Source: an uncultured Caulobacteraceae bacterium (GTDB taxonomy: Bacteria > Pseudomonadota > Alphaproteobacteria > Caulobacterales > Caulobacteraceae). From it: a DNA stretch of 28,465 bases. Made by a program: the position numbers and the translations under genes. Below, piece after piece: positions 1,119 to 17,307 of the stretch (positions within the stretch are counted from its first letter, which is position 1; each line of letters starts with the position of its first letter). The notes under the pieces were generated by a model, which worked only from the letters and a program-made list of their open reading frames with translations, was not told where the DNA came from and did no database searches. The stretch spans positions 1 to 28,465 of the forward strand of contig CAZTMF010000001.1 of NCBI GenBank assembly GCA_964614675.1, written 5' to 3'.

Positions 1119-1568
1119 TTATGACTGGTTCGGGAAACAGGCCGACTGGGCGATGGCTACCGACGACAGGCCGGTGATCAGGTTCGGGACCACGGTCCGG
1201 AACGTGTAGTTGATGGTCACCGAGGAGAAGCCCGTCGCGCCGCCGCAGGTCGCCGAGGTGCTGAGCGTCACCCCCGCCGACGGAACGGTGACGCCGTAGG
1301 TCGAGGCCACCGCCTGGACGTAGCTCAGGGCCTTGGTCGAGGAATAGGCCGCGCCGTTCGCGCAGCTGGTCGCCAGCACCCCCATGCACCGGGCCGCCTG
1401 GATGGCGGTCTGCTGCAGGGCGTTGGCGGTCCACATGTACCAGCCGAACTCCGTCACCCCGAAGAGCAGGGTGAACATGGTCATGATGACGAGGGAGAAT
1501 TCCACCGCCGCCCCGCCGTTCCGATCCTCCAGCCAGCGCCGGACTAGAGCGGGCTGACGCGGGCTCAC
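1119..1568 (-). CDS. tadE: TadE/TadG-family minor pilin (pseudopilin), 149 aa
   Basis: Class IVb prepilin motif DRNG|GAAVEF followed by a hydrophobic helix and FGVTEFG; four Cys. The GTG start overlaps the upstream stop (GTGA, 1565-1568). Confidence 0.88.
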   Translation of the reverse strand: MSPRQPALVRRWLEDRNGGAAVEFSLVIMTMFTLLFGVTEFGWYMWTANALQQTAIQAARCMGVLATSCANGAAYSSTKALSYVQAVASTYGVTVPSAGVTLSTSATCGGATGFSSVTINYTFRTVVPNLITGLSSVAIAQSACFPNQS

Positions 1569-2146
1569 TGGACCTGGACCAGGCTGGAGACGGTCATGGT
1601 CCCGGACTGGGAGAGCATGCCGTAGCCGATGAAGATCGGCGAATAGGCCCGGCTCGCCGACAGCAGCACGAACTTCCCAGCATAGCCGCCGCCGGGGCAG
1701 GTGGTCCCGCAGGTCTGGGAGCCTCCCCAGGTCACCGAAGCGGAGGTTCCAGTGGGGCAGTAGCAGCGGTCGGCGTTGGACGCGGTCCCGCCGGTGGTGA
1801 CCGTGCCGCCCGAGGAGCCGGCGGTCGGGCCGTTGTTCACGGTCACCGCGCTGTCGGCCCAGTTGGACGCCTGGCCGCTGGAGATCAGTCCCGCCAGGGT
1901 GCTGGCCAGGCTGGCGCCGGTGGTGGAGCTGACGCTCGCCTGGTTGACCATGGCGTAGTTGGCCGCCGCGCTCAGCGAGGCGTTCAGCTGGAAGCGGGTG
2001 TAGAGCAGCCCGCCCAGGTCGATCAGACCGACCAGGATCAGGATGACCGTCGGCGAGATCAGGGCGAACTCGACCGCCGCCACGCCGGAGCGGTCGCGAA
2101 GGAATCCCGCGCCGAGGCGCCGGGAGCGCTGCAGGACCGGCCGCAT
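1565..2146 (-). CDS. tadE: TadE-family minor pilin, 193 aa (real start 2146, not 3577)
   Basis: MRPVLQ..DRSG|VAAVEFALISP..LVGLIDLG prepilin motif and a CYCP..C..C cysteine cluster. The ATG overlaps the tadG stop (TGATG, 2144-2148). Confidence 0.88.
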   Translation of the reverse strand: MRPVLQRSRRLGAGFLRDRSGVAAVEFALISPTVILILVGLIDLGGLLYTRFQLNASLSAAANYAMVNQASVSSTTGASLASTLAGLISSGQASNWADSAVTVNNGPTAGSSGGTVTTGGTASNADRCYCPTGTSASVTWGGSQTCGTTCPGGGYAGKFVLLSASRAYSPIFIGYGMLSQSGTMTVSSLVQVQ

Positions 2147-4107
2147 CACTGCACCAGCGCGATCTTGACGCTGCCGGAGCCGCCGCCGACGCAGTTGGAG
2201 GCCGCGGTGGTGCCGCCGGACAGGGTGACCTGGGTGCCGATCAGCTCCAGGCACTGGCCCGCTCCGCCGCCGACGCTCGAGCCGCCGCTGAGCGATATGG
2301 AGCCCTGCGGGAAATAGAAGGCGCCCGACAGGCTGGTGTTGGAGGCGCCCTCGGCGAACAGGGCCCCGCCGGTGTTGGAGGCGGGACCGACGACCACCAG
2401 ACCCTGGGTGGCGCCCGAGGTTGGTGCGGTCATGGTCACGTGGCCGTAGCCGGCGGCGATGCAGAAGGATTGGCCCGAGCAGGACCCCGAGGCCGGCGTG
2501 GAGGCCCCGCCAATCACCCAGGTCACCCCCGTGCCGCTCATGCCGACAGTCACGCCATTGCAGGTGACGTCGCCGCCCGCCGAGCCGCCGAGGTCGACGT
2601 ACTGCGTAACAGAATAGACGCCCGAACCCAGGATGCTGCCGCCCGCGGTGATGAAGTAACCCTGGATGTCGTGCTGCGCGGCGGCGCTGATGGTGGTGCA
2701 GCTGCCCCCGCCGCTGGAGACGTTGAAGTTGCCGACCAGCTGGAAGACGCTGCCGGCGTCGGTCGCGTCGCCGAGCGTCGTGGTGGCGCCGCCGCCGATA
2801 TAGAAGGCGTTGCCGCCGCTGCTGGGGCCGACGAGGAAGCTGTTTCCGGTCCCGGACGAGCCAAGGACCAGCTTGGAGCCGCCGCCGTTGTAGACGCCGC
2901 CCTGGAGGGTGAAGCTGCTGGGGCCGCCGAAGGTCAGGATCGTGCCGGTATTGCAGATGCTGTAATTGGCGCCGTTGCAGCTGAAGCTCGCCTTGCCGAT
3001 GTTGAAGGTCCCGGCGCCGAACGTCGTAGTGGTGCCGCCGCCGGTGCTGAGACCGCCGGCGATGTTGTAGGTCCCCGGCCCGAAGGTCATGGCCGTGCCG
3101 GTGTTCTTGATCGATCCCGAGAAGTTGTAGGTGGTCGAGGCCGATCCGCCGGTGTTGAAGTTGACCGTGATGCCGCCGCCGGTGGTGATATTTCCGAAGG
3201 TGTAGGACGAGTAGCCGCTGCAGGTGACCGTCCAGGTGTTGCTGGCGAAGGTCCCGCTGCAATGGTCGGTGGTGAGCTGGGCCTGGGTGCTCGCGGTGCT
3301 GTAGGCGAAGTCGACGTCGCCGCCGGCGGTCACGGTCGGCGCAGCCGGCGCCGACATGGACGAGACGCTGGTCAGGTGGCCGGTGGCCGCGGTCACGCCG
3401 GAATTGCCGGCCAGGGGATCGGCGGTCGCCTTCTGGCTGATCGTGGGCGAAGCGCCGCCCGGCCCATGGATCCCGCTGCAGCCGACGGTGGGTGCGGCGG
3501 AATTGTAGGTCACCGACTGGGCGGTGATGCTGGTGCCGCAGGGCACGGTCTCGGAGGCGTTGGACGAGACCGAGCATCCGCTGGCGGTGACGGCGGTGCC
3601 GCCCGAGAGAGCGACGCCAGCGCCGCCCGAGCTCAGGGCGATGATGCAGCCCGAAGTCTGGACGTTCAGCTCGGCGTAGGAGGCGGCCGACACCGGCAGC
3701 GCGGTCGCTCCGCCCACCACCGAGGCGAGGTAGAGCGGAAGGGAGGACGAAACCGTCACCTGCACCGCCTGGTTCCCGTCGCCGGTCGGCGAGCTGACAA
3801 GGCTGGCCGACACATTGGTCGAGGCGACCCCATTCAGGGCCGCGACGGCATTGGCCGCCGAGGTCATGGAGGTGGTGGTGCCGTTGGTGTTGTAGGCCAG
3901 GGCTCCGGCGTAGGCGGCGAGGTCGGCCACTCGCTGGTTTTCGGTCTTGACCAGGAGGCCGTGGCCGTATTCGGCGACAAGCGAGGAAAAGGCGATCAGC
4001 GCGGGCAGGCTCAGCGCCGCGACGATGCTCACCGCCGCCCGGCGGTCACGGGCGAAGGCGCCCAAGCGCCGCGTGATGTGGAACAGCCCCTGCAGCATAG
4101 GTCTCAT
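2146..4107 (-). CDS. tadG: Large TadG-like pilus protein (putative tip adhesin) with a Gly/Thr/Ser-rich repeat domain, 653 aa
   Basis: DRRAAVSIVAALSLPALIAFSSLVAEYG..QRVADLAAYAGA is a Tad/TadG N-terminal motif. It is followed by CIIALS, about nine Gly/Thr repeats and LSGAFYFPQGSISLSGG. Start placed at ATG 4107, with GGGGG upstream. Confidence 0.82.
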   Translation of the reverse strand: MRPMLQGLFHITRRLGAFARDRRAAVSIVAALSLPALIAFSSLVAEYGHGLLVKTENQRVADLAAYAGALAYNTNGTTTSMTSAANAVAALNGVASTNVSASLVSSPTGDGNQAVQVTVSSSLPLYLASVVGGATALPVSAASYAELNVQTSGCIIALSSGGAGVALSGGTAVTASGCSVSSNASETVPCGTSITAQSVTYNSAAPTVGCSGIHGPGGASPTISQKATADPLAGNSGVTAATGHLTSVSSMSAPAAPTVTAGGDVDFAYSTASTQAQLTTDHCSGTFASNTWTVTCSGYSSYTFGNITTGGGITVNFNTGGSASTTYNFSGSIKNTGTAMTFGPGTYNIAGGLSTGGGTTTTFGAGTFNIGKASFSCNGANYSICNTGTILTFGGPSSFTLQGGVYNGGGSKLVLGSSGTGNSFLVGPSSGGNAFYIGGGATTTLGDATDAGSVFQLVGNFNVSSGGGSCTTISAAAQHDIQGYFITAGGSILGSGVYSVTQYVDLGGSAGGDVTCNGVTVGMSGTGVTWVIGGASTPASGSCSGQSFCIAAGYGHVTMTAPTSGATQGLVVVGPASNTGGALFAEGASNTSLSGAFYFPQGSISLSGGSSVGGGAGQCLELIGTQVTLSGGTTAASNCVGGGSGSVKIALVQ

Positions 4108-4253
4108 GGATCTGTTGCCCCCGCGGCAACATCTGCCATCTGACTTAAGCGTCAGTGAGTATCTAAGCTTAACTCCGGTCAACCAAAGTATTGATCGAAG
4201 CAAAGCCCGCGCAGCGGTTCGAAGCCTGCGCCTTCGGGGGGTGGGCCCGCCCG

Positions 4254-4269
4254 TTAAGGCATCCTAAAC
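4254..4269 (+). promoter_or_regulatory. Candidate CtrA box upstream of the flaEY-like gene
   Basis: TTAA-ggcatcc-TAAAC, one mismatch to TTAA-N7-TTAAC, about 50 bp upstream of ATG 4319. Confidence 0.45.
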
Positions 4270-4318
4270 GCCGACGGCGCAGGGTCCGGTCGAGGTTGGG
4301 GCCTCGTCGCTGGCTGAC

Positions 4319-7186
4319 ATGGGAACGCTCGACCTTTCGGTCCTGAACAATTGGTACAACGCCAAGGCGGGCGTCAGCAGCGGCGCGTCCGGTTCGACCG
4401 GGAGCGGCAGCGTCGCCTCCACCGCGCCCACGCCGCCGTGGCAGATCAAGACTTCGACGTCCTCCAGTTCGTCCTCGACCAGCACGAGCTCGACCAGCAT
4501 CCCTGACCAGGTCAGCGCGCTGATGCGGTCGCTGGCCGCGGGCGCCAAGCTGATCGATCCGACCGCCACCAAGGTGAGCGGCACGGGCGCCGATACTGAC
4601 GCGACGTCGAACTACCGCAACCTGTTCGCCCTCTATCAGGGCCTGAACAACCTGCAGTCCATCGCCAAGGCGGCGACAGCCAAGAACCTCTCCGACGCCC
4701 AGACCCAGCAGTTGCAGAAGGCCTTCCAGACCGGACTGCAGCAGCTGCAAAGCTATCTGGGGACCGACCCGTTCAAGGGTTTCGACGTCTACCAGACCCA
4801 GCCCGCGGTCAATGTGACGACCAGCCTCGCCATTCCCAAGGAGAAGGACACCTACACCACCCAGCCGCTCTATCAGGGGCCGGCCAATGGCGTGGTGCCG
4901 GGCTTCCAGGGGAACGTGCAGTTCAGCGTGACCGCAACACGGGCCTCGGGCGCCCAGGTGACCGTGGACTTCGACCTGAACGATCTCGGATCGACGCCGC
5001 GGACCTTCGGCAATGTCCTGAACTACATGAACGACAAGATGCAGGCGGCGGGGCTGGCGACCCGGTTCAGCGACAGCCTGACGCCCGGCAAGGCCAGCAC
5101 CGTCCAGGCTGGCTCCAAGACCATCACCCTGCCCGCCGGACCCGACCAGTACTCGCTGAAGATCGTGGGCACCTCGGCCGAGACCCTCGCCTTTTCCACC
5201 CCGACCACCGATCCGGCGGTCTATGTCGCCCAGACCGCGGGCATCACCACCGGCGCCAAGCCGGACGCCGTGCGTCAGCTGGTCAAGTTCGACGCCTCCG
5301 CCACCCCGGCCGACCCGTCGGCGGTGAACAACCAGGTGTTCAACCAGTCCCTGGGCTCCGGCGTGTCCAAGGTGACGGCCACCGCCACGGCCTCGGACGG
5401 CTCGGTCTATGTACTGGCCAATGTCACCGGACCGGTGAACGGACAGTCGATCCAGGCCAACCAGGACGTGGCCCTGATGAAGTACGACTCGGCGGGCAAC
5501 CTGGTGTTCACCCGCACCCTGGGCGCCGACACCAGCGCCTCGGGCTATGGCCTGGCCGTCTCGGCGGACGGCTCCCAGGTGGCGATCGTCGGGTCGACCG
5601 TCGACAACCTGAGCGCTACCGCGACCTCGAACGCGACGACCCCGACCTCGACCACGCCGCCACAGGGCTTCGTCAGCGTCTACGACGCGTCGGGGAACGA
5701 GGAGTGGACCCAGCAGATCCAGGCCACAGGCGGGACCGGCGGCGGCGTCCAGGCCAACTCGGTGGCCTTCGGATCAAACGGCATGGTCTATGTCGCCGGC
5801 CAGGTGGACGGCCGCATCCTGGGCGGCTCGTCCTCGGGCGGGCAGGACGCCTTCGTCCAGGGCTTCCACGCCGTCTCCAAGCCGCTGAACGACGGCTCGG
5901 GGAGTTCGCAGTGGGTGGTGACGACCACCGCCACCTCGCAATTCGGGACCACCGGCGTCGACCGGGCGACCGACCTCGCCGTATCGGGCTCGGCGGTCTA
6001 TGTCTCGAGCATGGAGAACGGCCAGGCGGTCGTGCGCCGGCTCGACGCCGCCGGCGTCACCGGAACCGGCCTGACCCAGAGCGCTGTGCGCAACCTCGGA
6101 GCCCTGCAGGGCGGCGCCATCGCGGGCCTCGCGGTGAATGCCGACGGCTCGGTGATCGTCGCCGGCTCGACCCACAATGGCGCCTTGAACGCCGGAACCG
6201 CGACCCAGGCCTATGTCGGCGGCGAGGAGGCCTTCGTAGCGAACCTCGCGGCGGACCTGCAGCCCGCGGCCGGCGACGCCGTGACCTACCTCGGCGGCTC
6301 GGCCGACCAGAACGCCACGGCCGTCACGGTCTCGAACGGCAAGGTCTATGTGACGGGCCAGATCGCCACCGCACCCCTGGCCGGCACGGGCCAGACACAG
6401 GGCTGGAACGGCTATGTCACGGCGCTGGACCCCACCACCGGACAGGTGAGCTGGTCCCAGCAGTACCAGGGCCAGGACAAGCAGGCGGCGCCGACCAGCA
6501 TCGCGGTCGCGGAAGGCGGCGCTTCCGTGCTCGACCAGCTGGGCTTGCCCAGCACGATCTCCTGGGCGCCCTCCCAGGAGCTGGTGGCCAACACCGCCAT
6601 GCGTCCAGGCGACCAGCTCTACGTCCAGAACGGAACCGGAAAGCCCATCGCAGTGACCATCGCGGCGGACGACACCTACGAGACCCTGGCCAAGAAGATC
6701 GCCAAGGCGTCAAACTACGCCATCAAGACCACCATCCTGCCGCTGACGACCGGCTCGACCCTGAAGCTCGCGCCGGCCTATCCGGGCGTGCAGGTGACGC
6801 TCCTGCCGGGCCCGCTCGGGCACGACGCGCTGGGACCGCTCGGAATCGCCCAGGGCGTCCTCACCGCCTCCGCCAGCAAGGAGGGCTCGGCCGCACCCGG
6901 CGGCGATTCCGGCCCGCTCGCCAGCCGCAACTCGTTAAAGAACGGCTATTCGCTGAAGCTGTCGTCGAGCCTGACCCTGGCGAACCCCGCGCGCGCCTTG
7001 GCGGCGTCTGGGGCCCTCAGCGGCGCCATCGCCACCCTCAAGGGCATCTACGCCGACATGAGCACCCCTCCGTCCCAGAACAAGGCGGCGACCAGCGGGA
7101 CCGTGCCGACCTATCTGACCAACCAGATCGCCAACTACCAGGCGGCCCTGTCGCGCCTGCAGGGCAGCAGCAGTAGCAGCAGCTGA
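4319..7186 (+). CDS. flaEY: FlaEY/FlaY-like flagellum-associated protein with an internal SBBP-type beta-propeller, 955 aa
   Basis: Length and layout match my recollection of Caulobacter FlaEY. Ser/Thr-rich N-terminus, helical YRNLFALYQGL segment, propeller blades (ASDGSVYVL, MKYDSAGN, GSNGMVYVAG, NADGSVIVAG, SNGKVYVTG), VTIAADDTYETLAKKI and C-terminal YLTNQIANYQAALSRL. No Sec signal. Not confirmed by search. Confidence 0.62.
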   Translation: MGTLDLSVLNNWYNAKAGVSSGASGSTGSGSVASTAPTPPWQIKTSTSSSSSSTSTSSTSIPDQVSALMRSLAAGAKLIDPTATKVSGTGADTDATSNYRNLFALYQGLNNLQSIAKAATAKNLSDAQTQQLQKAFQTGLQQLQSYLGTDPFKGFDVYQTQPAVNVTTSLAIPKEKDTYTTQPLYQGPANGVVPGFQGNVQFSVTATRASGAQVTVDFDLNDLGSTPRTFGNVLNYMNDKMQAAGLATRFSDSLTPGKASTVQAGSKTITLPAGPDQYSLKIVGTSAETLAFSTPTTDPAVYVAQTAGITTGAKPDAVRQLVKFDASATPADPSAVNNQVFNQSLGSGVSKVTATATASDGSVYVLANVTGPVNGQSIQANQDVALMKYDSAGNLVFTRTLGADTSASGYGLAVSADGSQVAIVGSTVDNLSATATSNATTPTSTTPPQGFVSVYDASGNEEWTQQIQATGGTGGGVQANSVAFGSNGMVYVAGQVDGRILGGSSSGGQDAFVQGFHAVSKPLNDGSGSSQWVVTTTATSQFGTTGVDRATDLAVSGSAVYVSSMENGQAVVRRLDAAGVTGTGLTQSAVRNLGALQGGAIAGLAVNADGSVIVAGSTHNGALNAGTATQAYVGGEEAFVANLAADLQPAAGDAVTYLGGSADQNATAVTVSNGKVYVTGQIATAPLAGTGQTQGWNGYVTALDPTTGQVSWSQQYQGQDKQAAPTSIAVAEGGASVLDQLGLPSTISWAPSQELVANTAMRPGDQLYVQNGTGKPIAVTIAADDTYETLAKKIAKASNYAIKTTILPLTTGSTLKLAPAYPGVQVTLLPGPLGHDALGPLGIAQGVLTASASKEGSAAPGGDSGPLASRNSLKNGYSLKLSSSLTLANPARALAASGALSGAIATLKGIYADMSTPPSQNKAATSGTVPTYLTNQIANYQAALSRLQGSSSSSS

Positions 7187-7220
7187 CGGGCGACCGGAAC
7201 GCGCCAGGCGCCGATCATCA

Positions 7221-7235
7221 TCAACATGATCTTAA
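7221..7235 (+). promoter_or_regulatory. Candidate CtrA box upstream of the 571-aa gene
   Basis: TCAA-catgatc-TTAA, one mismatch to TTAA-N7-TTAA, 40 bp upstream of ATG 7276, inside a 90-bp intergenic gap. Confidence 0.5.
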
Positions 7236-7275
7236 GTCCGCCCTGGTCTGATCCGTCGCCTGGAATGGGGACTCC

Positions 7276-8991
7276 ATGGGCGACGATCGCATTCATTTCG
7301 AGGTGTTCGCCCAGAGAGCGGGCGGGACATCGTTCAGCCTGCAATCCGCCACCGAGACCCGTGAGCGCGCGCTCGAGACGGCCGAGGAGCTGATCGACAA
7401 CGGTCGCTTCACGGCCGTGCGGGTCACCAAGGAAACGCTGGACCCGGAGTCCGGCGAGTTCAAATCCATCACCATCTTCAACAAGGGTACGGCCCAGACG
7501 ACCCGGAGCAAGGTGGAACCGATGGAGCAGGCGCCCCTGTGCGTCAGCCCGGCCGACCTCTACACCGTCCACGCCCGCGACCGGATCGCCCGCCTGATGC
7601 AGGACTGGCTGAACCGTCAAAGGGCCACGCCCTTCGAGCTGCTGCACCGGGCGGACCTGATCGAGAAGCTGGAGGCTTCGGGCGTCGAGCTGCAGCACGC
7701 CATCCAGAAGATCGCCGTGCCCGAGGCCCAAGCGACGGGCGCCAGCGTGCATGAGATCATGCGGCGCTTCCACGACCTGATCCAACGCGCCATCGACCGG
7801 GTCCTCAGCGACGCGAAGAAGGGGCAGTTCCCCAAGCTATCACAGACCGACTTCGCGGCGACCTGCGAGCGGCTGCTCGAGCATCCGGACCGCTTCTACC
7901 TGCTGGGCGCGGGTGTGGCGGTCTATGTCGGCGCGGCCAAGGACTGGGGCGAGAAGGTGGGGCTGCTGCTCGATCTGGCCGATGCGGCGCCCAAGGCCGG
8001 GCCTTCGCGCGCCCTGGCCCTGCAAGTGATCGAACAGCCGCTGGGCGAGATCCTGCGCTCGCGCGTGGGTCTCTCGGAGTTGCTCGGCAAGGAGCTGGAC
8101 TTCGGCGCCAGCATGGGAGCCCTGACCCGCCTCGCCGCGGCGGATACCGTCGATCTCGTCTCCACCGTCGATGCGAACGTGGCGCGGCTCATCCCGCCAC
8201 TGACGGGCGCGCCCGAGCGGCTCGGCCGCTGGCTCACCGGACCCAGCTTCGAGGGCGTGCGCTTGGCCCTCAACCAGCGGATCCTGCAGGAACTGGGCGC
8301 GCGGCGGCGGCTCAGGCCCTCCGACGCGCACGGCGAGATCGAGATCCTGCGCGCCCTCGCCGTGGCGCTGACGTCAGCGGCCGGCAAGCTGTTGCCGCTG
8401 GACGACGTGCGCGAAGCCTTCGCCGAACGCTCCAAGATGCTGGTGGCTTCCGAGTTCGTGGACGCCCTGCTCCGCGAGAGCGATTCTCCGATCCAGGAGG
8501 CGCACGACCTGATCTGGCTTCTAGAAAACGTCACCGGCGGGGGCAACAAGCGCTCGGCCCTGCGCTGGCTGATGGCGACCGTCACCTCCCTGCGCTTCGA
8601 GACCGAGGCCCTGTCGGCCGCCGCCTCCAGCCCAGGCACACAGCTGACCCAGATCGCCGAGATCTATCGCGACACCGCCCGGGCCGCGGGCGAGACGGCG
8701 GGCGTGCGCGAGGTGCTGCAGCGCCTGTCCGACCTCGGCGGACGCATCGAGGCCCAGAACAAGATGGTCGCCCAGGTGACCAAATCGACGGCGCCCCCGG
8801 TGCAGAAGCTGACCATGCTGCTGAAGATGGCCACCGGCGAAACCGCCCCGCCGGGTCCCGCCGCCGAGCGGGCCAAAGCCCTGGCGCTGAAACTGGCCGC
8901 CGAGCCGGACGTCCGCTCCGGCCTGTCGCAGGACGCCGAGACGATGAGGCGGCTGCGCCAGGTGGTGGGTCCGCTCGCACCGGCCGCCTGA
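7276..8991 (+). CDS. Protein of unknown function, mostly alpha-helical, 571 aa
   Basis: Long ORF with typical GC3-biased codons and plausible globular composition. It has a small N-terminal alpha/beta segment (HFEVFAQR..AVRVTKETLDP), then APLC..DLYT..TPFELLH. No signal peptide or TM segment. Confidence 0.8.
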   Translation: MGDDRIHFEVFAQRAGGTSFSLQSATETRERALETAEELIDNGRFTAVRVTKETLDPESGEFKSITIFNKGTAQTTRSKVEPMEQAPLCVSPADLYTVHARDRIARLMQDWLNRQRATPFELLHRADLIEKLEASGVELQHAIQKIAVPEAQATGASVHEIMRRFHDLIQRAIDRVLSDAKKGQFPKLSQTDFAATCERLLEHPDRFYLLGAGVAVYVGAAKDWGEKVGLLLDLADAAPKAGPSRALALQVIEQPLGEILRSRVGLSELLGKELDFGASMGALTRLAAADTVDLVSTVDANVARLIPPLTGAPERLGRWLTGPSFEGVRLALNQRILQELGARRRLRPSDAHGEIEILRALAVALTSAAGKLLPLDDVREAFAERSKMLVASEFVDALLRESDSPIQEAHDLIWLLENVTGGGNKRSALRWLMATVTSLRFETEALSAAASSPGTQLTQIAEIYRDTARAAGETAGVREVLQRLSDLGGRIEAQNKMVAQVTKSTAPPVQKLTMLLKMATGETAPPGPAAERAKALALKLAAEPDVRSGLSQDAETMRRLRQVVGPLAPAA

Positions 8992-9985: not shown

Positions 9986-11107
9986 TCAGGCCAGCGCGGA
10001 CCGTAACGCTGCGATCACCCGCGTGACGCTGTCGTCCGTCAGCTCCGGATAGATGGGCAGGCTCAGGATTTCGGCCGCCAGGGTCTCCGTGACCTCCAAG
10101 CCCCCGGGGCCGATCGGAAGCCTGTCCGCATAGGCCGGCTGTCTGTGGACGGGCTCGGGATAGTGGATGGCCGTCACCACGCCGCGCTCGGCCAGGGCCC
10201 GGCGCAGAGGGTCGCGCTCCGGCGCGCGCACCACATATTGATGCCAGACATGGGTTTCCCCCGGCCCTTCGACCGGCAGGATCAGCGGAAGACCGCGCAG
10301 TCCCTCGGCATAGGCGCCGGCGATGGCGCGGCGGCGGGCGTTGGCCTGGTCCAGACGCGACAGCTTCACCCGCAGCACCGCCGCCTGCACCTCGTCCAGG
10401 CGCGAGTTCATGCCTGCCGTCTCGGAGACGAAGCGTCGACGCCAGCCATATTCTCGGAGGCTCCTTGCGCGCGCCGCCAGGTCCTCGTCGTCGGTCACCA
10501 GCATGCCGCCGTCGCCGAGCGCTCCCAGGTTCTTGGTCGGATAGAAGCTGAAGGCGCCGACCTCGCCGAAGCCTCCGACCTTGCGCCCCCCCACTTCGGC
10601 GCCATGGGCCTGGGCGGCGTCTTCGAGCACGACGGCGCCCCAGCGCCGTGCAAGGGCCCGGATCTCACGGATGCGGGCCGGCCGGCCGTAGAGGTGAACA
10701 GGAACGATGGCCCGGATGGGCGGCTGCGAAGATCGGAGCAAGGCCTCCAGGGCGTCCGGGTCCATGTTGAAGCTCGACGCCTCGACATCGACCAGCACGG
10801 GCGTCGCGCCGGCGAGCTCGATGGCGGCCGCTGTGGCGCTGGCGGTCAGCGAGACGGTCGCCACTCCGTCGCCGGGCCCTATCCCAAGGGCCTTGAGCCC
10901 GAGGGCGATGGCGTCCGTGCCGCTGGCGACGCCGACCGCGAACCGGGTTCCGGTCCAGTCGGCGAACGCCCGCTCGAATGACTCCACCTCCGGCCCCAGG
11001 ACGTATTGTCCATGCGTCAGGACCTTGGCGACGGCAGCGTCGATCTCGACCTTCTGCGCCAGGTAGGCGGCGCGGGGGTCAGCCTGGGGAATCGGAAGGT
11101 CGGTCAC
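9986..11107 (-). CDS. DegT/DnrJ/EryC1/StrS-family PLP-dependent sugar aminotransferase, 373 aa
   Basis: YVLGPEVESFE, VASGTDAI, PVHLYG, EDAAQAHGA, SFYPTKNLGALGDGG (PLP Lys), NSRLDEVQAA and LSLPIYPEL. The GTG start at 11107 overlaps the upstream stop (GTGA). Confidence 0.93.
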   Translation of the reverse strand: MTDLPIPQADPRAAYLAQKVEIDAAVAKVLTHGQYVLGPEVESFERAFADWTGTRFAVGVASGTDAIALGLKALGIGPGDGVATVSLTASATAAAIELAGATPVLVDVEASSFNMDPDALEALLRSSQPPIRAIVPVHLYGRPARIREIRALARRWGAVVLEDAAQAHGAEVGGRKVGGFGEVGAFSFYPTKNLGALGDGGMLVTDDEDLAARARSLREYGWRRRFVSETAGMNSRLDEVQAAVLRVKLSRLDQANARRRAIAGAYAEGLRGLPLILPVEGPGETHVWHQYVVRAPERDPLRRALAERGVVTAIHYPEPVHRQPAYADRLPIGPGGLEVTETLAAEILSLPIYPELTDDSVTRVIAALRSALA

Positions 11108-12090
11108 AGGTAAGCGGCAAGATGTTCGCGGAAATAGTCGAGAGTGCGCTGAAGACCCTCCTCCAGCCCCACCTGCGGCATCCACCCGGTCAGCCGCCGG
11201 AACAAGGCGTCGTCGGCATAGAAATCGCCGATATCGATGCGTCGGCGCTCGGCAGGGAATTCCTTCACCTCGAAACCGCCTCCAGTCAGGCGCGACAGAA
11301 GTTTTGCGGTCTCCAGCAGGCTCAGGGCCGGCGGCGCGCCGGACAGGTTGAACACCTTGCCTATGGCTTCGGGCCGGGAGGCGGCCAGCAGCAGGGCCTC
11401 CACCACGTCGTCGACATAGGCGAAGTCGCGCAGCTGATCTCCGTCCCACACCTCGAAGGAGCGTCCCATCAAGGCGGAGCTGATCCAAATGCCGAGGAAG
11501 GTCTGGCGGGCGTCCTTGATCCGCATCCGGGGCCCATAGGTGTTGGTCAGGCGCAGGATCGAGGCCTTCAGGCCGTAAACCTCGCCATGGAGCCGGTGAT
11601 AGCTCTCGCCGGCGAGCTTGTGCACGCCGTTGAAGTCGACGGGCCGGAGCGGATGGGCCTCGTCGACGGGAAGGTAGTCGGGCCGGCCATAGATCTGACG
11701 GGTCGAGGCGAACACTGTGAGCGCCCCTGGCGCCAGCCGGCGCCAGGCGTCCAGCAACGAAAGATGGGCCCGGCAGTTCAGCTCGAGGTCGAGCTGCGGA
11801 TCGCGCATGGAGTCCAGGTGGCTGGTCTGGCCGGCCAGGTTGAAGATGATCTCCTGGCCCGGCAGCAGGCGCTCCAGCAGCGCCTGGTCGCGGAGGTCGC
11901 CGATCTCCACCGCCAGACGGTGCTCGACGCCCAATATGTTATGGCGCAGGCCGCCCTGACCCGGATGAAGGCAATCGACCAGGGTCACCTGGGAGCCGAG
12001 CTCGACCAGTCGGCGAGCGAGATTCGACCCCAGGAACCCGAGACCGCCCGTCACCAGCACGCGGGCGCCCTGGAAAGCGGAGGCGCTCAC
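11104..12090 (-). CDS. NAD-dependent nucleotide-sugar epimerase/dehydratase (extended SDR), 328 aa
   Basis: VLVTGGLGFLGSNL, FNLAG, ASTRQIYG, FNGVHK (the YxxxK Tyr position appears to be Asn), RLTNTYGPR and RDFAYVDD. GTG start at 12090 with AAGGAG upstream, overlapping the previous stop. Confidence 0.92.
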   Translation of the reverse strand: MSASAFQGARVLVTGGLGFLGSNLARRLVELGSQVTLVDCLHPGQGGLRHNILGVEHRLAVEIGDLRDQALLERLLPGQEIIFNLAGQTSHLDSMRDPQLDLELNCRAHLSLLDAWRRLAPGALTVFASTRQIYGRPDYLPVDEAHPLRPVDFNGVHKLAGESYHRLHGEVYGLKASILRLTNTYGPRMRIKDARQTFLGIWISSALMGRSFEVWDGDQLRDFAYVDDVVEALLLAASRPEAIGKVFNLSGAPPALSLLETAKLLSRLTGGGFEVKEFPAERRRIDIGDFYADDALFRRLTGWMPQVGLEEGLQRTLDYFREHLAAYL

Positions 12091-13967
12091 TCTCCTTGCC
12101 GCTGGCCGGTCGCCTGCAGCAATTCGTCCAGGGCCGCTTCGACCGTCTCCACGGACAGCGACCAGGCGTCGCGCTGCGGCCCCGCCGGATCGCCGAACAG
12201 ATAGCTGAACCGGTTTCCCGACGCCCCGATCCAAAGGGCGATCTCGTCGAGGAATCCGTGAGCCGCAGGCGGCATGAGCGCCAGGACGCCGCGCGGCCTC
12301 GATCCATAGGCGGCAAGATTCAGATAGGCCGACCCATAGGCGCCCCCGATCATCTCGGCCTGCGAGAAGAGGGCGTGGGCGCGTTCGAAGCTCAGCCGCT
12401 CGGGCCGGATCGAGCGGAAGCCGCGGCGCTCGAAGGCGGCGCGGATCTCGGGCTCGTTGACGAGGCTGCGGGTCGAGACGCCTTCCCGTGACAGATAGAG
12501 GCGCTCCCCGCGATCGGTCTTCATCGGCGGAGCGAGGCGCTGATAGACGTCGAAAAGGCCCCGCATGGGCTGGCTGCGCAGGGGAAGGGGCCAGGACGGG
12601 ACATAGAGCTTGGCGAACACGGACACCCCCCGGGGATCGTGGAGGATGATCCGGTCGCGTCGGACGCCGAGCGCTTCGAGCATATGCAGCCAGGGCTCCG
12701 GCCGCCCAGACCGCACCACGATCGGACAATCAAGGCCGGCGGCTGCGGCGATCGTCAGGCGGCCGGGGAAGTTCAGCGTCCAGTCGCCGAAGCCGGAGTC
12801 CGTGGGACCCGCCAGCAACAGGGCCGGCGTGTCGAACACCTCGACCGGACAGGCGCCGTCGCGGAACGTCGGCGGGTCGGCGACGATGTGACCATGGGCC
12901 TCCTGCAGCCCCGCCTTGCCGAGGTCACACGGGGGCTTCAGTTCCTCGGGCGCTTCGCCCTTGCGGTTCAGGACCAGGCCGCGGCCGACCAGCGCTGCGC
13001 CCTCGAGCGCGGCCAGGTGCTTGGGCGCCGTCGTGTACCTGAACAGCGTCTTGCCGGCCGGCGCGCTCGCGAGCCGGACCACCGGCTCCAGTTCGACAGT
13101 CTCCCCTCCGGGATCGAGCGTCAGGATGGCGTCGCCGGACCCCTCGAGCTCGCGCAGGTCGCGCACCTGCTGCAGCGCCTCGCCTCTGGGGCGGATCGGG
13201 ATTGCCTCGCGTGGATCGAAGACGAATCCCCTGGGGCCAAGCCGCCGGGACATCACGGGCTTGACCGCCCATTGGGTTCGCGGAGAGTAGATGCGCCATG
13301 CCCGCTTGAGCGGCTCGAGCTCCTCGGACTTGGCCTGGGCCTCCAAAGCGCCGCGCCAGCCGAGCCAGCCTTCCACGAAGGCCGGACAATAGCGCGTCAG
13401 CTTGGCGAACTTGATCTCGGCGTCGGCGAACCGCCGGCGAGCCAACAGCTCCATCGCCTCGAGATACAGTCCCTTGAAAGCCGGGCTGAGGCCGCGCCGA
13501 GAGTCTTGCTCCAGGCCGACCAGGGCCGCCCGGTGACGGCGGAGAAGAACTGGCGCGTCCTCGGGATGCTTCGCGATGGCCTCCGCAAACCCCCTGGTGG
13601 CTTCGCTGTAGAATCCCATCTCGAAGAACAGGGACGCGCTTTCAATCTCCGGGATGGACGGGCCGTCACCGGTCTCCGGGCGGCTCCGCAAGGCGTTCAA
13701 CGCGTCGCTGAAGCGTCCCAGGCCGATGAAGGCCCTCGCCAATTCGACGGCCGCAGCCGCGGAAGCCGGGTGGAGGCGCACGGTCTCAGCGAGCTTGGCG
13801 ATCCGCTTCTTCGCGGCTTCAAGCCGAAGCCGAGGGAAAGTCAGCGCATTCGCACTCGCGATGGTCTCCACCGAGGCCGATCGGCCTGGGTCCGGACGCA
13901 CCGCCACAGCGGCCCGCCGGACGGGCGCACGGCGCGCCTCGACCGCTCTTACTCGCACAAACGCCAT
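12087..13967 (-). CDS. TPR-repeat protein fused to a GT61 (DUF563-type) glycosyltransferase domain, about 626 aa
   Basis: N-terminal TPR-like helices (LARAFIGLGRFSDALNAL, LFFEMGFYSEATRGFAEAI, LLARRRFADAEIKF..PAFVEGWLGW). C-terminal FGDWTLNFPGRL and RLYLSRE..RSLVNEPEI..GFRSIRPERLSFE..LFSQAEMIGGAYGSAYLN. Start inferred at ATG 13967. Confidence 0.78.
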   Translation of the reverse strand: MAFVRVRAVEARRAPVRRAAVAVRPDPGRSASVETIASANALTFPRLRLEAAKKRIAKLAETVRLHPASAAAAVELARAFIGLGRFSDALNALRSRPETGDGPSIPEIESASLFFEMGFYSEATRGFAEAIAKHPEDAPVLLRRHRAALVGLEQDSRRGLSPAFKGLYLEAMELLARRRFADAEIKFAKLTRYCPAFVEGWLGWRGALEAQAKSEELEPLKRAWRIYSPRTQWAVKPVMSRRLGPRGFVFDPREAIPIRPRGEALQQVRDLRELEGSGDAILTLDPGGETVELEPVVRLASAPAGKTLFRYTTAPKHLAALEGAALVGRGLVLNRKGEAPEELKPPCDLGKAGLQEAHGHIVADPPTFRDGACPVEVFDTPALLLAGPTDSGFGDWTLNFPGRLTIAAAAGLDCPIVVRSGRPEPWLHMLEALGVRRDRIILHDPRGVSVFAKLYVPSWPLPLRSQPMRGLFDVYQRLAPPMKTDRGERLYLSREGVSTRSLVNEPEIRAAFERRGFRSIRPERLSFERAHALFSQAEMIGGAYGSAYLNLAAYGSRPRGVLALMPPAAHGFLDEIALWIGASGNRFSYLFGDPAGPQRDAWSLSVETVEAALDELLQATGQRQGE

Positions 13968-14320
13968 CCGATCGCCCCCCGGCTCAATCAGAACACCAAG
14001 GGCGCCAGATTCGCCCCAAGCCCACGAACATTTCAAGTGCGCAATCAACGAAATGTTCGCGCCGAGCCGACCTGTGGCTCCGTTGAAGTGATTAAGATAC
14101 GACTGTGACAAGCCGTCGCTTGATCAAGCTTGATCTCGGCTTCTGCCCTGTCGGCGCGGGCGGGCGGAGGGCCCGCGCTCGGTGGGAGCATGTCCCAAGT
14201 TGGAGCGCGATCGCCGGCGACTTACTGCTGCTACTGACGCTCGCGGCATGCAGCCGCGCCCGAGGTTGCACCCGACGGACGCCCCCGAGCCGAAGCGTCC
14301 GATCACCAGGTGCGCGGGCG

Positions 14321-14611
14321 TCATTTGTCGGGCAAGGCCAACCGCGCGCCCAGGCTCAACACGGGCGCGCCGTCCCGCTCGATCCAGTGGGCCTCAAAAC
14401 GTCCTGCCAGATCACCGTCCAGCCGTCGCCGCAGCTCCCCGTCCACGTCCGGCGGGGCAGCCCAGCGGACCGGCGGCGAGGTGGCGTCATCCTCGAAGAT
14501 CAGCCAAGCCTGGTTCGGCGGGGTGCAACGGCACAAGACAATGACCACGCGGCTGTCGGCGCGGGCCTGCGAACAGCCAAAATCCGCGGGTGGCGGGGAC
14601 AGCAGGTGCAT
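14321..14611 (-). CDS. Small hypothetical protein, 96 aa
   Basis: The only ORF in the 14.0-14.9 kb gap that looked coding to me (mostly G/C at third positions). Globular-looking sequence VVIVLCRCTPPNQAWLIFEDD..ELRRRLDGDLAGRFEAHW; weak RBS. Confidence 0.45.
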   Translation of the reverse strand: MHLLSPPPADFGCSQARADSRVVIVLCRCTPPNQAWLIFEDDATSPPVRWAAPPDVDGELRRRLDGDLAGRFEAHWIERDGAPVLSLGARLALPDK

Positions 14612-14889
14612 CGCTTCTTTCAACTTGCAACTTGCCAAAATCGACCGTGGCGCAGCTCAGCTGTGACGCCTTGGGATTGCGCGGGTATATCAATGCCGCG
14701 AACGCGCGGCCAAAACTGGGCGCCTGCCGATATTGCCGGCGCCGACAGCCACTCCATCGAGGTTTGAGCGGAGACGTCCGAACAGCGCGACGGCGCACCA
14801 ATTCGATCCGTTCGGGCGCCAAGATGAAGATTGTCGTCCAGGGCTGACCGAGCCGCCGCGGCGTCTGTCGACTGTCGTGAAATAGATCC

Positions 14890-17151
14890 TCACGAACCAG
14901 ATCGCGCCACGCGATCTTCCCGGCAAGCCGGCCGTCCGACGATCCTCAAGCCGCCCAGCTCGGCGATCGCCGCGACGATGTGGTAGAACGAACTTGCCGG
15001 CGCGGGGCCGTCTGCGAATTGCCCCTCCGTTCCCAGGCGGTCTCTCCAGAGGCCCGGAATGGGCGTCGCAAAATAGGTCTCGAGCACCTCCGCCGCCCGG
15101 ACTGACGCGTCCTGTTCACCCAGGATGTGCGCGGCCTTGACCCGTTCAGTCTGTGGCCACAGCCGCGCGGTGCGTTCGCGCGGCGAGAGGTCGTCCAGAA
15201 GGCTGTCGATCGCCGCGCCCGAGACCCGGTCGACTCCGGCGTCGCCCACCTCGAACAGCCGCCGGGCCCTGGCGGATGCATCCCGGCGATCATTCAGCCA
15301 AGCCCATTGCTGCAGCAGCCAGGCCCATTCGAACTGGTGCCCGGGCTCGACGATCCGGCCCAGATCACCGGGCGCGGGCCGCCATTGCTCGTCGAAGACT
15401 TCGCGCAGCGCGCCCGATTCAGCATCGATGAAGCGGCTGCAGCAGAGCTCGCCGATCTCGTCGGCCAGTTCTCGCCAACCGGCGTGGGCGCTCACGCCGC
15501 TCCAGGTGAGCGACGCCTCGAAGAGGTGCATCAGAGCGTTGGACTGGTATGGCCTATCGTCTCCCGCCTCGCGCAGGCCCCCCGACGGACAGTCATGGGC
15601 CTCGCGGACGCGGCCAAGCAACGCCTCGGCCTGCGCGGAGAGCCTCGCCCGGTCCTCCGGCAGCGCCTTGGCGGCAGAGGCCAGGGACAGAAGCACGAAG
15701 GCCTGATCATAGAGCATGGCCGAATCATCGGCGACGGCCCCGTTGTCGGTGACCAGGGTGCGGTAGAGGCCGTCGGGGCGGCGGTACCGCGTATCCAGGT
15801 AGTCGAGGCCGTGACCGATCGCCTGGCGCCAGGGCCCCCGCCAGCCGAGGGCGCCGGCGGTTGCATAGCTATAGACCTGCCGAGCCTGCACCCTGAGTCT
15901 GCGCCCTTCGTCAGCGGGCCGACCCTGCTGATCCAGCCCCTCGCGGAATCCGCCACGCTCGTGGTCGGCTCCCAGAGACCACCAGATCGGAAGGGCGCTG
16001 GTCATGAGCCAGTCCGTCAGCCGCCCGCTCACCGCCGCCAGGGGCCCTACCTCTCCCGCCACTGTGGCCGAGGCGGCCTTGAGCTTGTCGACCAACCCCT
16101 TCACCTCCTGGCTGGCATCGAGGGCGCAGACGAGGATGGCGTCCGGCTCGACCACCACGCCCACCCGGTCCAGTCCCACGAGGGTGACGAGCTGGCCTGT
16201 GGCGGAACGCACCAACGACCCGGTGCTCGCGTGCGCCATCGCCGCGCCCCGGAAGGCATTGCCCTGCTCGTCCTGAGCAGAGGCCTGATGGATCGCCTGC
16301 CAGGACCCGAGGTCCGACCAGGAGTAGCTGACCGGCACCACCGCGGCGTGGCGGGTCTTCTCCATCAGGGCGTAGTCGATGGAGATCTTGGGCGCGGTCC
16401 GGAATTGGTCGCCCAGGTCCAGGCCGTCGGACCTCTGCTCGCCGCCCACGTAGGCCGCGCGCACCCTCTCCATCAGCTCGGGCGCGAAGGTATCGAGTTC
16501 GCCCAGCAGCCGGTCGGCGCGGAAAACGAAGTTGCCGCTATTCCAGAGATAGCCGGCGTCGACATAGGCCTTGGCCGTCTCGGCCGGCGGCTTCTCCACG
16601 AAGCGCCGCACCCAGTGGGCGCCGGGCGCCAGATCCAGCGCCTCGGCCGGCTCGATATAGCCATAGCCGGTGGAGGGTTCGGTCGGCCTTATCCCGAAGG
16701 TCGCGATGGCGCCCCCCGCCGCAGCCGCCACAGCGATCTCGGCCGCGGCGCAGAAGGCGTCTGCGTCCGGGATATGGTGATCGGCGGCGACCACCACGGC
16801 CACGCCGTCGGCGGCCTGGCCCTGAATCCAGCAGCCGGCGGCCGCTATGGCGGGCGCCGAATCCCGACCCTCGGGCTCGATGATGATGAAGGCGGACCGG
16901 CCGATCGCGGCAAGCTGTTCGCGGATCAGCTCAAGGTGCGCGCGGCCCGCGACGATAACCGCATCGCGCGCCCCGCGCAGGCGCGACATGCGCAGCACGG
17001 TGTCCTGGAAGATCGAGAATTCGCCCAGCAGCGGCAGGAACTGCTTCGGCCGCGAGGGCCGCGACGCCGGCCAGAGCCGCGTGCCCGCCCCTCCGCACAG
17101 GATGACTGGAAACACAGGCAGTTCTACGCGCGGCAAAGGAGCCCCTCTCAT
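14890..17151 (-). CDS. manC: Mannose-1-phosphate guanylyltransferase fused to a C-terminal AGE-family (alpha/alpha)6 epimerase/isomerase, about 753 aa
   Basis: N-domain PVILCGGAGTRLWPASR..PKQF, FVEKP, WNSGNF, SIDYALMEK, WSDLGSW. C-domain RVQARQVYSYA, LYDQAF, NALMHLFEA, EPGHQFEWAWLL, WPQTERVKA, FYHI. Start uncertain (17151 or slightly downstream). Confidence 0.9.
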   Translation of the reverse strand: MRGAPLPRVELPVFPVILCGGAGTRLWPASRPSRPKQFLPLLGEFSIFQDTVLRMSRLRGARDAVIVAGRAHLELIREQLAAIGRSAFIIIEPEGRDSAPAIAAAGCWIQGQAADGVAVVVAADHHIPDADAFCAAAEIAVAAAAGGAIATFGIRPTEPSTGYGYIEPAEALDLAPGAHWVRRFVEKPPAETAKAYVDAGYLWNSGNFVFRADRLLGELDTFAPELMERVRAAYVGGEQRSDGLDLGDQFRTAPKISIDYALMEKTRHAAVVPVSYSWSDLGSWQAIHQASAQDEQGNAFRGAAMAHASTGSLVRSATGQLVTLVGLDRVGVVVEPDAILVCALDASQEVKGLVDKLKAASATVAGEVGPLAAVSGRLTDWLMTSALPIWWSLGADHERGGFREGLDQQGRPADEGRRLRVQARQVYSYATAGALGWRGPWRQAIGHGLDYLDTRYRRPDGLYRTLVTDNGAVADDSAMLYDQAFVLLSLASAAKALPEDRARLSAQAEALLGRVREAHDCPSGGLREAGDDRPYQSNALMHLFEASLTWSGVSAHAGWRELADEIGELCCSRFIDAESGALREVFDEQWRPAPGDLGRIVEPGHQFEWAWLLQQWAWLNDRRDASARARRLFEVGDAGVDRVSGAAIDSLLDDLSPRERTARLWPQTERVKAAHILGEQDASVRAAEVLETYFATPIPGLWRDRLGTEGQFADGPAPASSFYHIVAAIAELGGLRIVGRPACREDRVARSGS

Positions 17152-17307
17152 CAACTGGAACAACTGATCCGCTGCCCCGGGCAAGTGTCAAGCCGGCCAA
17201 GAGGAGCGCCGGCGCATCGGCGCAGAGTTTCGCCGCATTGACCACATAGTTGAGTTCGATTAACCTTTGTTCTCAGTTTTTGTGCAGCTCTCGAAGGAGG
17301 GCGAATA

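Follow-up and report, generated by a model that had tools for sequence, protein, structure and literature searches.

A translationally coupled TPR-GT61 glycosyltransferase, Tyr-less SDR and C3-type DegT aminotransferase in an uncultured Caulobacteraceae bacterium: a possible amino-sugar cassette for protein glycosylation

Introduction

Cytoplasmic protein O-glycosyltransferases with built-in acceptor recognition are few (OGT/SPY, FlmG and Maf-1), and such enzymes are attractive for programmable glyco-engineering because their acceptor and donor modules are swappable. In OGT and SPINDLY (SPY), which belong to family GT41, a tetratricopeptide repeat (TPR) superhelix is fused to a catalytic domain of the GT-B fold and Ser/Thr residues of many proteins are modified. 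The GT-B family GT61 (Pfam PF04577) includes EOGT, which acts on Ser/Thr of EGF repeats, and POMGNT2, which acts on O-mannosyl peptides. Here we describe a three-gene cassette encoding a TPR-GT61 glycosyltransferase (GT), an extended short-chain dehydrogenase/reductase (SDR) and a DegT-family aminotransferase, which lies in a stretch of 28,465 nucleotides from an uncultured Caulobacteraceae bacterium (contig CAZTMF010000001.1; the whole stretch is referred to below as the window). The reading that we tentatively put first is that this is a self-contained cytoplasmic cassette that would make a 3-amino sugar and attach it to a protein acceptor.

The nearest described system is that of Caulobacter crescentus FlmG, a cytoplasmic protein of 596 aa whose TPR residues 1-313 bind flagellins. 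In FlmG the TPR part binds the protein acceptor while the GT-B domain sets donor specificity (PMC7591256; bioRxiv 10.1101/2022.03.25.485807), and the FlmG class is said to be confined to the Caulobacterales (bioRxiv 10.1101/2023.12.03.569772). The enzyme of the window resembles FlmG of C. crescentus and Brevundimonas subvibrioides in having TPRs at the N terminus and a GT-B domain at the C terminus in a host of the same bacterial order, and the domain roles established for FlmG were adopted as the working model for it.

Results

A glycosyltransferase with TPR and GT61 domains

The three genes follow one another on the minus strand in the order TPR-GT61, SDR, DegT and span positions 13967-9986 (Table 1). 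Reading of this strand confirmed the two GTGA start/stop overlaps by which an earlier note, made from the letters of the window alone, had joined them, and an AGGAGA run resembling a Shine-Dalgarno sequence lies 5' of the SDR start at the GT/SDR junction. Protein P0001, 99% identical to the window GT, was called with the same start (related loci are designated by L numbers throughout; L001 is a near-identical contig).

The product of the first gene matches PF04577 (Glyco_transf_61) over residues 420-552 with 48-49 bits against a gathering cutoff of 27, and the same domain was present in 63/63 of its close homologues. A family profile was built from 34 TPR-GT61 members and the same alignment was supplied to AlphaFold2, which returned a confident model (pLDDT 89, pTM 0.88) with twelve helices at residues 33-240 followed by a two-lobed alpha/beta domain at 256-624. 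When the model was compared with the PDB using Foldseek the top 16 matches were chains of POMGNT2 (E 8.5e-6 to 1e-3 over about 380 columns), which is the sole significant PDB match for the catalytic domain; the TM-score to POMGNT2 is kept low by the additional TPR domain and a differing orientation of the lobes, and sequence identity to POMGNT2 and EOGT is 12-15%. Single-sequence Pfam matches to TPR models were sub-threshold (TPR_19 at 21.3 bits against a cutoff of 25), but the family profile scored 197 bits against consensus TPR proteins and 69 bits against the OGT TPR domain, and Foldseek matched the TPR domains of CTPR, Hop, P58IPK, PEX5 and OGT with probabilities of 0.94-1.0. The likeness to OGT and SPY is confined to this architecture, the catalytic family being another one and the full-length Foldseek probability low (0.16-0.47). 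GT61 is thus indicated by both Pfam and fold and the TPR region by both family profile and fold, so that the domain calls of the earlier note were correct, as they were for the SDR and DegT proteins by Pfam; on sequence and model the GT is a two-domain protein with TPRs in its N-terminal part and a GT-B domain of GT61 type in its C-terminal part. Three motifs are invariant in the family alignment (Table 1).

A hydropathy scan of the three cassette proteins found no signal peptide and no transmembrane segment, and the maximum KD19 of the GT was 1.31, indicating no hydrophobic segment. The GT is accordingly described here as a putative soluble cytoplasmic protein, with glycosyl transfer as its predicted activity. 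EOGT and POMGNT2 are lumenal, are without TPRs and use UDP-GlcNAc, whereas the window GT appears to be cytoplasmic, is TPR-fused and is coupled to amino-sugar genes of its own. No NCBIfam equivalog model scored above its cutoff for any of the three cassette proteins.

A phmmer search of 1.84 billion representative proteins gave 62 matches at E <= 1e-30 and 175 at E <= 1e-10, with a step in score between full-length TPR-GT61 proteins (more than 200 bits) and generic GT61 proteins of 300-420 aa (less than 95 bits). Standalone GT61/DUF563 proteins (e.g. of Vibrio sp. KMM 8419; PMC11641403) share the catalytic family and a bacterial host with the window GT, but they are of about 390 aa, lack TPRs, are encoded inside a polysaccharide cluster and fall below this same 95-bit level. 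The scan of species-representative genomes found only five loci, four of them paralogues in one Caulobacteraceae metagenome-assembled genome (MAG), and identified no cultured host of the family. By these scores the TPR-GT61 family is real, narrow and paralogue-rich. Literature searches found no characterised bacterial GT61/DUF563 or TPR-GT61 protein beyond one annotated capsule gene, in keeping with the earlier note, which knew of no characterised bacterial TPR-GT61. Among cassette orthologues identity is 31-40% in the TPR domain, 49-54% in the GT domain and 69-79% in the SDR and DegT proteins; the TPR domain is the fastest-diverging part of the cassette, which fits adaptation on the acceptor side.

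Comparison with FlmG-like proteins of a flagellin locus

The lineage of the window is Caulobacteraceae, where FlmG enzymes occur, and a FlaEY-domain gene lies two genes away from the cassette. Both facts would suit a divergent system of the FlmG kind in which the amino sugar replaces pseudaminic or legionaminic acid (Pse or Leg) on flagellins encoded elsewhere, and so would the presence of a FlaEY paralogue in a true flagellin locus. In that locus (L016 12859-20490), which was reached through homologues of the FlaEY-like protein of the window, FlaEY (the paralogue, 45% identical) is accompanied by a GNAT gene, by two flagellin genes with FlaG, FlaF and FlbT, and by genes for two TPR proteins. 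The latter, of 584 and 604 aa, share 50% identity in their C-terminal domains and were called FlmG-like by context, size and architecture and not by comparison with the C. crescentus sequence. Their C-terminal halves had no Pfam match (PF04577 included) even at E <= 10, in the same run in which the window GT scored 49 bits against PF04577, and when they were aligned with the TPR-GT61 family using hhalign only the TPR region aligned. A tblastn query with the flagellin N terminus found no match in the window or in about 95 related loci. Furthermore, the SDR is not of the PseB type, the DegT protein scores 251 bits against a PseC cutoff of 423.5, and the FlaEY paralogue of the window is linked to Tad-like, not flagellar, genes. 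We therefore regard flagellin glycosylation as very improbable.

Membership of the FlmG family was rejected on the absence of GT61 from the L016 FlmG-like proteins, the TPR-only alignment, the lack of a link to flagellin and the lack of a Pse/Leg donor pathway. The TPR-only alignment and the absence of flagellin genes nearby indicate that the window GT follows the same architectural principle as FlmG without being a member of its family; thus the parallel that the earlier note had drawn with FlmG stands for the TPR part, but the catalytic domain of the FlmG-like proteins is not GT61. The donors would also differ, being CMP-Pse or CMP-Leg for FlmG and a C3 amino sugar, made by the SDR and DegT proteins, for the window GT.

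A C3-type DegT aminotransferase

The product of the third gene matches Pfam DegT_DnrJ_EryC1 with 389 bits. Its closest solved relatives are 7b0d (344 bits), DesV (337), QdtB (289), 7n63 (278), WbpE (265) and WlaRG (247), whereas C4 enzymes score lower (ArnB 212 bits, the perosamine synthase Per 197 and PseC/PglE about 85). In a study of C3 versus C4 specificity, DesV, QdtB, WbpE and WlaRG are the four reference C3 aminotransferases and the discriminating C3 motif surrounds the Schiff-base Lys (bioRxiv 10.1101/2021.09.04.459008). The match of the window enzyme to this motif was judged against the segments of DesV and 7b0d: its segment, SFYPTKNLGALGDGG, differs from that of 7b0d by one substitution (L→Y) and is very similar to that of DesV. 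Closeness to all four C3 references together with the motif identifies it by sequence as a C3-type sugar aminotransferase of the DesV/QdtB/WbpE clade. A C4 aminotransferase of PseC, ArnB or Per type was rejected because of the lower scores, including that of the PseC model given above. A literature search on structure 7B0D found nothing.

An extended SDR without the catalytic Tyr

The oxidoreductases of the WbpB/WbpE, GnnA/GnnB and NtdC/NtdA pairs are of the Gfo/Idh/MocA type. As in these pairs, an oxidoreductase gene lies directly upstream of a C3-type DegT gene in the window, which suggests oxidation followed by transamination, but the oxidoreductase differs from WbpB, GnnA and NtdC in being an extended SDR that lacks the catalytic Tyr. 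The DesV and QdtB pathways differ in another way, since they need a 4,6-dehydratase (and that of QdtB also a cupin ketoisomerase), both of which are missing from the window cassette.

The SDR matches Pfam Epimerase (PF01370) with 150 bits and retains the Rossmann motif and the active-site Thr and Lys. In alignments to three solved enzymes, including GalE and UXS, Asn154 stands opposite the catalytic Tyr (PVDFNGVHK versus PxSPYGxSK), and the active-site Thr is followed by Arg-Gln where 4,6-dehydratases carry Asp-Glu. Both atypical features are common to 6/6 cassette orthologues, and among the 120 best SDR homologues STRQ was found in 114/120 and NG[IV][NH]K in all but one, so that neither feature is a sequence error. 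No other protein of the cassette is as conserved as the SDR (71-79% identity between orthologues), and its subfamily crosses phyla, occurring at 62-66% identity in Alphaproteobacteria, Planctomycetaceae and Caldilineaceae. In this subfamily the STDE/STSE of extended SDRs is replaced by STRQ, and a C3-type DegT is often the next gene. The unidentified partner proteins beside the SDR in the planctomycete and Caldilineaceae loci showed no relation to the GT61 family, and a literature search found nothing on this subfamily or on SDR-type sugar 3-dehydrogenases.

Two assignments of the SDR were rejected: an RmlB-type 4,6-dehydratase, because Thr-Asp-Glu and YxxxK are absent and TIGR01181 scored 104 bits against a cutoff of 365, and a GalE-type 4-epimerase, because the Ser/Thr-Tyr-Lys triad is broken by Asn154 and TIGR01179 scored 107 bits against a cutoff of 262. 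The protein is also not of the Polysacc_synt_2/PseB type. The earlier note had described an SDR dehydratase acting with a DegT enzyme; the two families hold, but a canonical pair of 4,6-dehydratase and C4 aminotransferase does not, as the DegT protein falls in the C3 clade and the SDR is without the Tyr and the Asp-Glu.

Replacement of the catalytic Tyr by Asn throughout the SDR subfamily raises the question of whether the three genes, although co-transcribed, serve one pathway at all, or whether the SDR is a non-catalytic partner or regulator that binds NAD(H) or an NDP-sugar. In that case the DegT enzyme would act on a keto sugar from another source or on a substrate that is not a sugar. The Caldilineaceae SDR (L097) is without an adjacent DegT gene and some TPR-GT61 paralogues have neither SDR nor DegT nearby, as this explanation would allow. 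However, the SDR keeps 62-66% identity across phyla and has lost neither its Rossmann motif nor the Thr and Lys, which speaks for a catalytic function under constraint. In addition, the adjacency of SDR and DegT recurs in a planctomycete, and the three genes are translationally coupled in other loci too; we consider an explanation of this kind improbable.

Conservation of the cassette and its paralogues

The GT-SDR-DegT block is more than a chance arrangement: it was found in 15 or more independent loci from metagenomes or MAGs, with GT identities of 44-100% and, in most, the same 4-nt overlaps. That between GT and SDR recurs in L001, L007 and L008 and the SDR/DegT GTGA in L001, L007, L008 and L010. 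A metagenome scan added 79 loci. Where the GT is at least 44% identical to that of the window and there is enough downstream sequence for a locus to be counted, a same-strand SDR (and DegT) gene lies directly downstream in 15 loci; two more have a convergent DegT gene, and more divergent paralogues are mostly without the SDR-DegT pair. The gene order is kept in L007, L008/9 and L010/11 between unrelated flanks, which in L007 comprise MlaA, YggT, a Rieske oxygenase, GT2 genes and an LpxL-like gene. In L008 they include MlaA and CDP-diacylglycerol pyrophosphatase (CDH), and in L010 a two-component system and dienelactone hydrolase. Flanks across the cassette loci range to glycine-cleavage genes, and genes for polysaccharide export or polymerisation are usually distant. 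The arrangement varies in five further loci, where the GT gene is convergent with or divergent from the SDR-DegT pair or a DegT gene; in L012 and L006 it is convergent with the pair. Conservation of the block amid unrelated flanks argues that the cassette is a self-contained module, and bears out the proposal of a self-contained unit for amino-sugar supply and transfer.

Downstream of the paralogues each clade was found to have a tailoring gene of a different kind, encoding an RmlC-like cupin (which an HpcH-like aldolase often accompanies), a hexapeptide-repeat (LbH) acyltransferase, or a PhyH dioxygenase together with an FkbM methyltransferase (examples of loci in Table 1). TPR-sulfotransferases and TPR-GT17 proteins also recur near TPR-GT61 paralogues, a hint that modifying enzymes with TPR fusions form a wider system in these genomes. 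A cluster of 40 apparent neighbour open reading frames (ORFs) was discarded, as these seem to overlap the GT gene in antisense orientation. As a separate observation, a gene for the alpha subunit of a Rieske/ring-hydroxylating oxygenase adjoins the SDR-DegT pair in two contexts that differ in other respects (L007 7880-9022 and L012 14115-15284).

Neighbourhood of the cassette

The cassette lies between an appendage cluster and polysaccharide genes, as had been described. On the DegT side the plus strand encodes three proteins, one of 955 aa that contains a FlaEY_3rd domain, one of 571 aa without a family and a response regulator, with TadE/TadG-like genes further out on the minus strand. On the GT side lie a fusion of ManC with N-acylglucosamine-2-epimerase (AGE), a WecG-type GT and a GMC oxidoreductase, as well as a polysaccharide lyase-RTX fusion, Wzy, a second lyase and an FkbM methyltransferase. 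The FlaEY-like protein has 22% Ser+Thr, an S/T-rich start and no signal peptide, and is a candidate acceptor only. A block of Tad-like, FlaEY-like and 571-aa genes beside the TPR-GT61-SDR-DegT operon was found also in a second lineage (L015/L023), in which the operon extends into genes for a methyltransferase, a protein of 138 aa and a TPR-sulfotransferase.

In this conserved block (window 1565-8991; L015 6838-14649) the TadE/TadG-like pseudopilin genes are divergent from the FlaEY-like and 571-aa genes, and the block seems to put a FlaEY paralogue to a non-flagellar use that is as yet uncharacterised. The ManC-AGE fusion (14890-17184) is a 764-aa protein in which a nucleotidyltransferase of the mannose-1-phosphate guanylyltransferase type is joined to an N-acylglucosamine 2-epimerase domain; it occurs also in L015, in another position relative to the cassette. 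The lyase-RTX protein (745 aa, 20615-22852) combines a polysaccharide lyase domain with nonapeptide repeats of RTX type and a C-terminal domain like that of serralysin, and is probably type I-secreted.

In the gap upstream of the GT gene a promoter scan found no sigma-70 consensus, an Rfam search of the window gave no family match and a terminator scan returned one weak terminator-like site (14564-14545), so that the regulatory scans were uninformative. The gap also holds a small ORF of 96-105 aa without a family (14321-14638, minus strand), for which there is a gene call in L001. Sequencing runs of DNA that carry the locus are rhizosphere metagenomes, the source being an uncultured bacterium, and relatives of the locus are labelled Caulobacteraceae.

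Table 1. Positions of the cassette genes, their domains and motifs, and associated features (window positions unless a locus number is given)
Feature	Position	Strand	Details or basis
Gene 1, TPR + GT61 glycosyltransferase, 626 aa	13967-12087	minus	ATG 13967, TGA 12089-12087
Gene 2, extended SDR, 328 aa	12090-11104	minus	GTG 12090-12088, TGA 11106-11104
Gene 3, DegT aminotransferase, 373 aa	11107-9986	minus	GTG 11107-11105, stop at 9986
GTGA start/stop overlap, GT/SDR genes	12090-12087	minus	Sequence read
GTGA start/stop overlap, SDR/DegT genes	11107-11104	minus	Sequence read
TPR-like helical domain, GT residues ~33-240	13248-13871	minus	AlphaFold2 model, Foldseek, family profile
GT-B catalytic domain, GT61 type, GT residues ~256-624	12096-13202	minus	Pfam, Foldseek
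PF04577 match, GT residues 420-552	12312-12710	minus	Pfam
Invariant motif GPTDSGFGDW (family form GPTDxxFGDW)	12780-12809	minus	Family alignment
Invariant motif SRxxxxxRxxxNE	12453-12491	minus	Family alignment
Invariant motif YGSAxxN	12318-12341	minus	Family alignment
Rossmann motif GGLGFLGS	12025-12048	minus	SDR
STRQIYG	11686-11706	minus	SDR
NGVHK, with Asn154 at the catalytic-Tyr position	11617-11631	minus	SDR
Schiff-base Lys segment SFYPTKNLGALGDGG, DegT residues 187-201	10505-10549	minus	Alignment
Upstream gap, cassette to ManC-AGE gene, 922 bp	13968-14889	minus	Presumed promoter region
Second lyase gene	25020-25817
Planctomycete SDR	L096 8001-9011	-	DegT gene next after SDR
Caldilineaceae SDR	L097 2596-3579	-	No adjacent DegT
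Paralogue with tailoring genes	L062 1580-2218
Paralogue with tailoring genes	L012 4510-5217
Paralogue with tailoring genes	L039 10826-14621
Paralogue with tailoring genes	L006 17055-21641
Paralogue with tailoring genes	L033 6664-8598

Discussion

The cassette can be seen as a variation on TPR-guided glycosyltransferases in which the catalytic domain is GT61, a domain for which no characterised bacterial member was found. In the sequence of events that we propose, the SDR would bind a common NDP-hexose and NAD+ and yield a keto sugar, oxidation at C3 being the most economical possibility. The DegT enzyme, whose regiochemistry is supported by its sequence and whose substrate is presumed, would then turn this keto sugar into an NDP-3-amino-3-deoxy sugar. 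Finally, the TPR-GT61 enzyme would transfer the amino sugar to a macromolecule docked by the TPR domain. As there is no third sugar-modifying gene in the cassette and the SDR is without the dehydratase signature, a two-step route to the donor is the simplest. By analogy with OGT and FlmG the likeliest acceptor would be Ser/Thr of a protein that is synthesised in the cytoplasm and modified before its export. An acceptor of this kind is favoured by the soluble nature of the enzyme, the usual isolation of the cassette from genes for polysaccharide assembly, the fast divergence of the TPR domain and the precedents of OGT and FlmG, and also by the fact that several enzymes in these genomes (GT61, GT17 and sulfotransferase) carry TPR domains.

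The same donor chemistry could instead serve a glycan or glycolipid on the cytoplasmic face (undecaprenyl-linked extracellular polysaccharide (EPS), an O-antigen, a core unit or another soluble or lipid-linked glycan), with the TPR domain serving to oligomerise the enzyme or to dock it onto the assembly machinery. We regard this as quite possible, if on balance doubtful. Some multidomain capsule polymerases contain TPR domains; the targets of plant GT61 enzymes are xylan and N-glycans, and POMGNT2 itself acts on a peptide-attached sugar. The window cassette adjoins genes of EPS type (ManC-AGE, WecG, Wzy, FkbM and polysaccharide lyase), WecG is also near the cassette in L007, L023 and L027/28, and the flanks of L007 and L008 hold envelope genes (MlaA, LpxL-like, CDH and GT2/GT4). 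Sugar-tailoring genes (RmlC-like cupin, LbH acyltransferase, FkbM, sulfotransferase and GT17) are abundant around the paralogues, and paralogues beside FkbM methyltransferases, sulfotransferases and GT17 have the surroundings typical of glycan tailoring. In addition the COG label of the family of the GT is 'capsular polysaccharide biosynthesis protein', and standalone GT61 genes occur in capsule clusters, as annotated for that of Vibrio sp. KMM 8419 (PMC11641403). Against a glycan acceptor, most cassette loci have, within 8-10 kb, no gene for a flippase, a polymerase or export, the enzyme appears soluble with no segment for membrane association, the TPR domain is its fastest-evolving part, and the family is a paralogue radiation of TPR-fused enzymes.

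The EPS-type neighbours, the tailoring genes, the COG label and the annotated capsule gene also weigh against protein glycosylation by a self-contained cassette, the reading that we prefer, as do several further points. The catalytic domain of the window GT is not homologous to that of FlmG, as compared through the FlmG-like proteins of L016. The earlier note had proposed the nearby TadG, FlaEY-like and RTX proteins as candidate acceptors, but adjacency to FlaEY and Tad genes was seen in 2 of about 7 informative contexts (the window and L015/L023), being absent in L007, L008, L010, L012 and L006, and may be mere synteny of related genomes. None of the RNA runs searched for the locus carries it. 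Lastly, with the catalytic Tyr missing, oxidation of a sugar by the SDR is uncertain on its sequence, and to our knowledge no characterised extended SDR makes a 3-keto sugar. The Tyr-less SDR is an additional puzzle that is independent of the question of the GT61 acceptor.

A bolder version of the preferred reading, which we think rather unlikely as a whole, is that these enzymes form a new class of bacterial cytoplasmic protein O-glycosyltransferases, catalytic cousins of EOGT and POMGNT2 with independently acquired TPR docking. They would have radiated in Caulobacteraceae into paralogues with their own donor-tailoring enzymes and, together with the TPR-sulfotransferases and TPR-GT17 proteins, would build complex glycans on non-flagellar exported proteins such as the FlaEY-like protein. 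The Tyr-less SDR would be a new NDP-sugar C3-dehydrogenase and would provide a cross-phylum route to 3-amino sugars in two steps.

If the acceptor is a polysaccharide, the finding reduces to an unusual yet ordinary decoration module. If it is a protein, the cassette would provide a first function for a bacterial GT61, would link bacterial GT61 enzymes to animal EOGT and POMGNT2, and would offer a natural panel of paralogues with different donor modules. Whatever the acceptor, an SDR without a residue deemed essential for SDR catalysis is conserved in several phyla, regularly in the company of a C3 aminotransferase, and it poses a testable enzymological question about the synthesis of 3-amino sugars.

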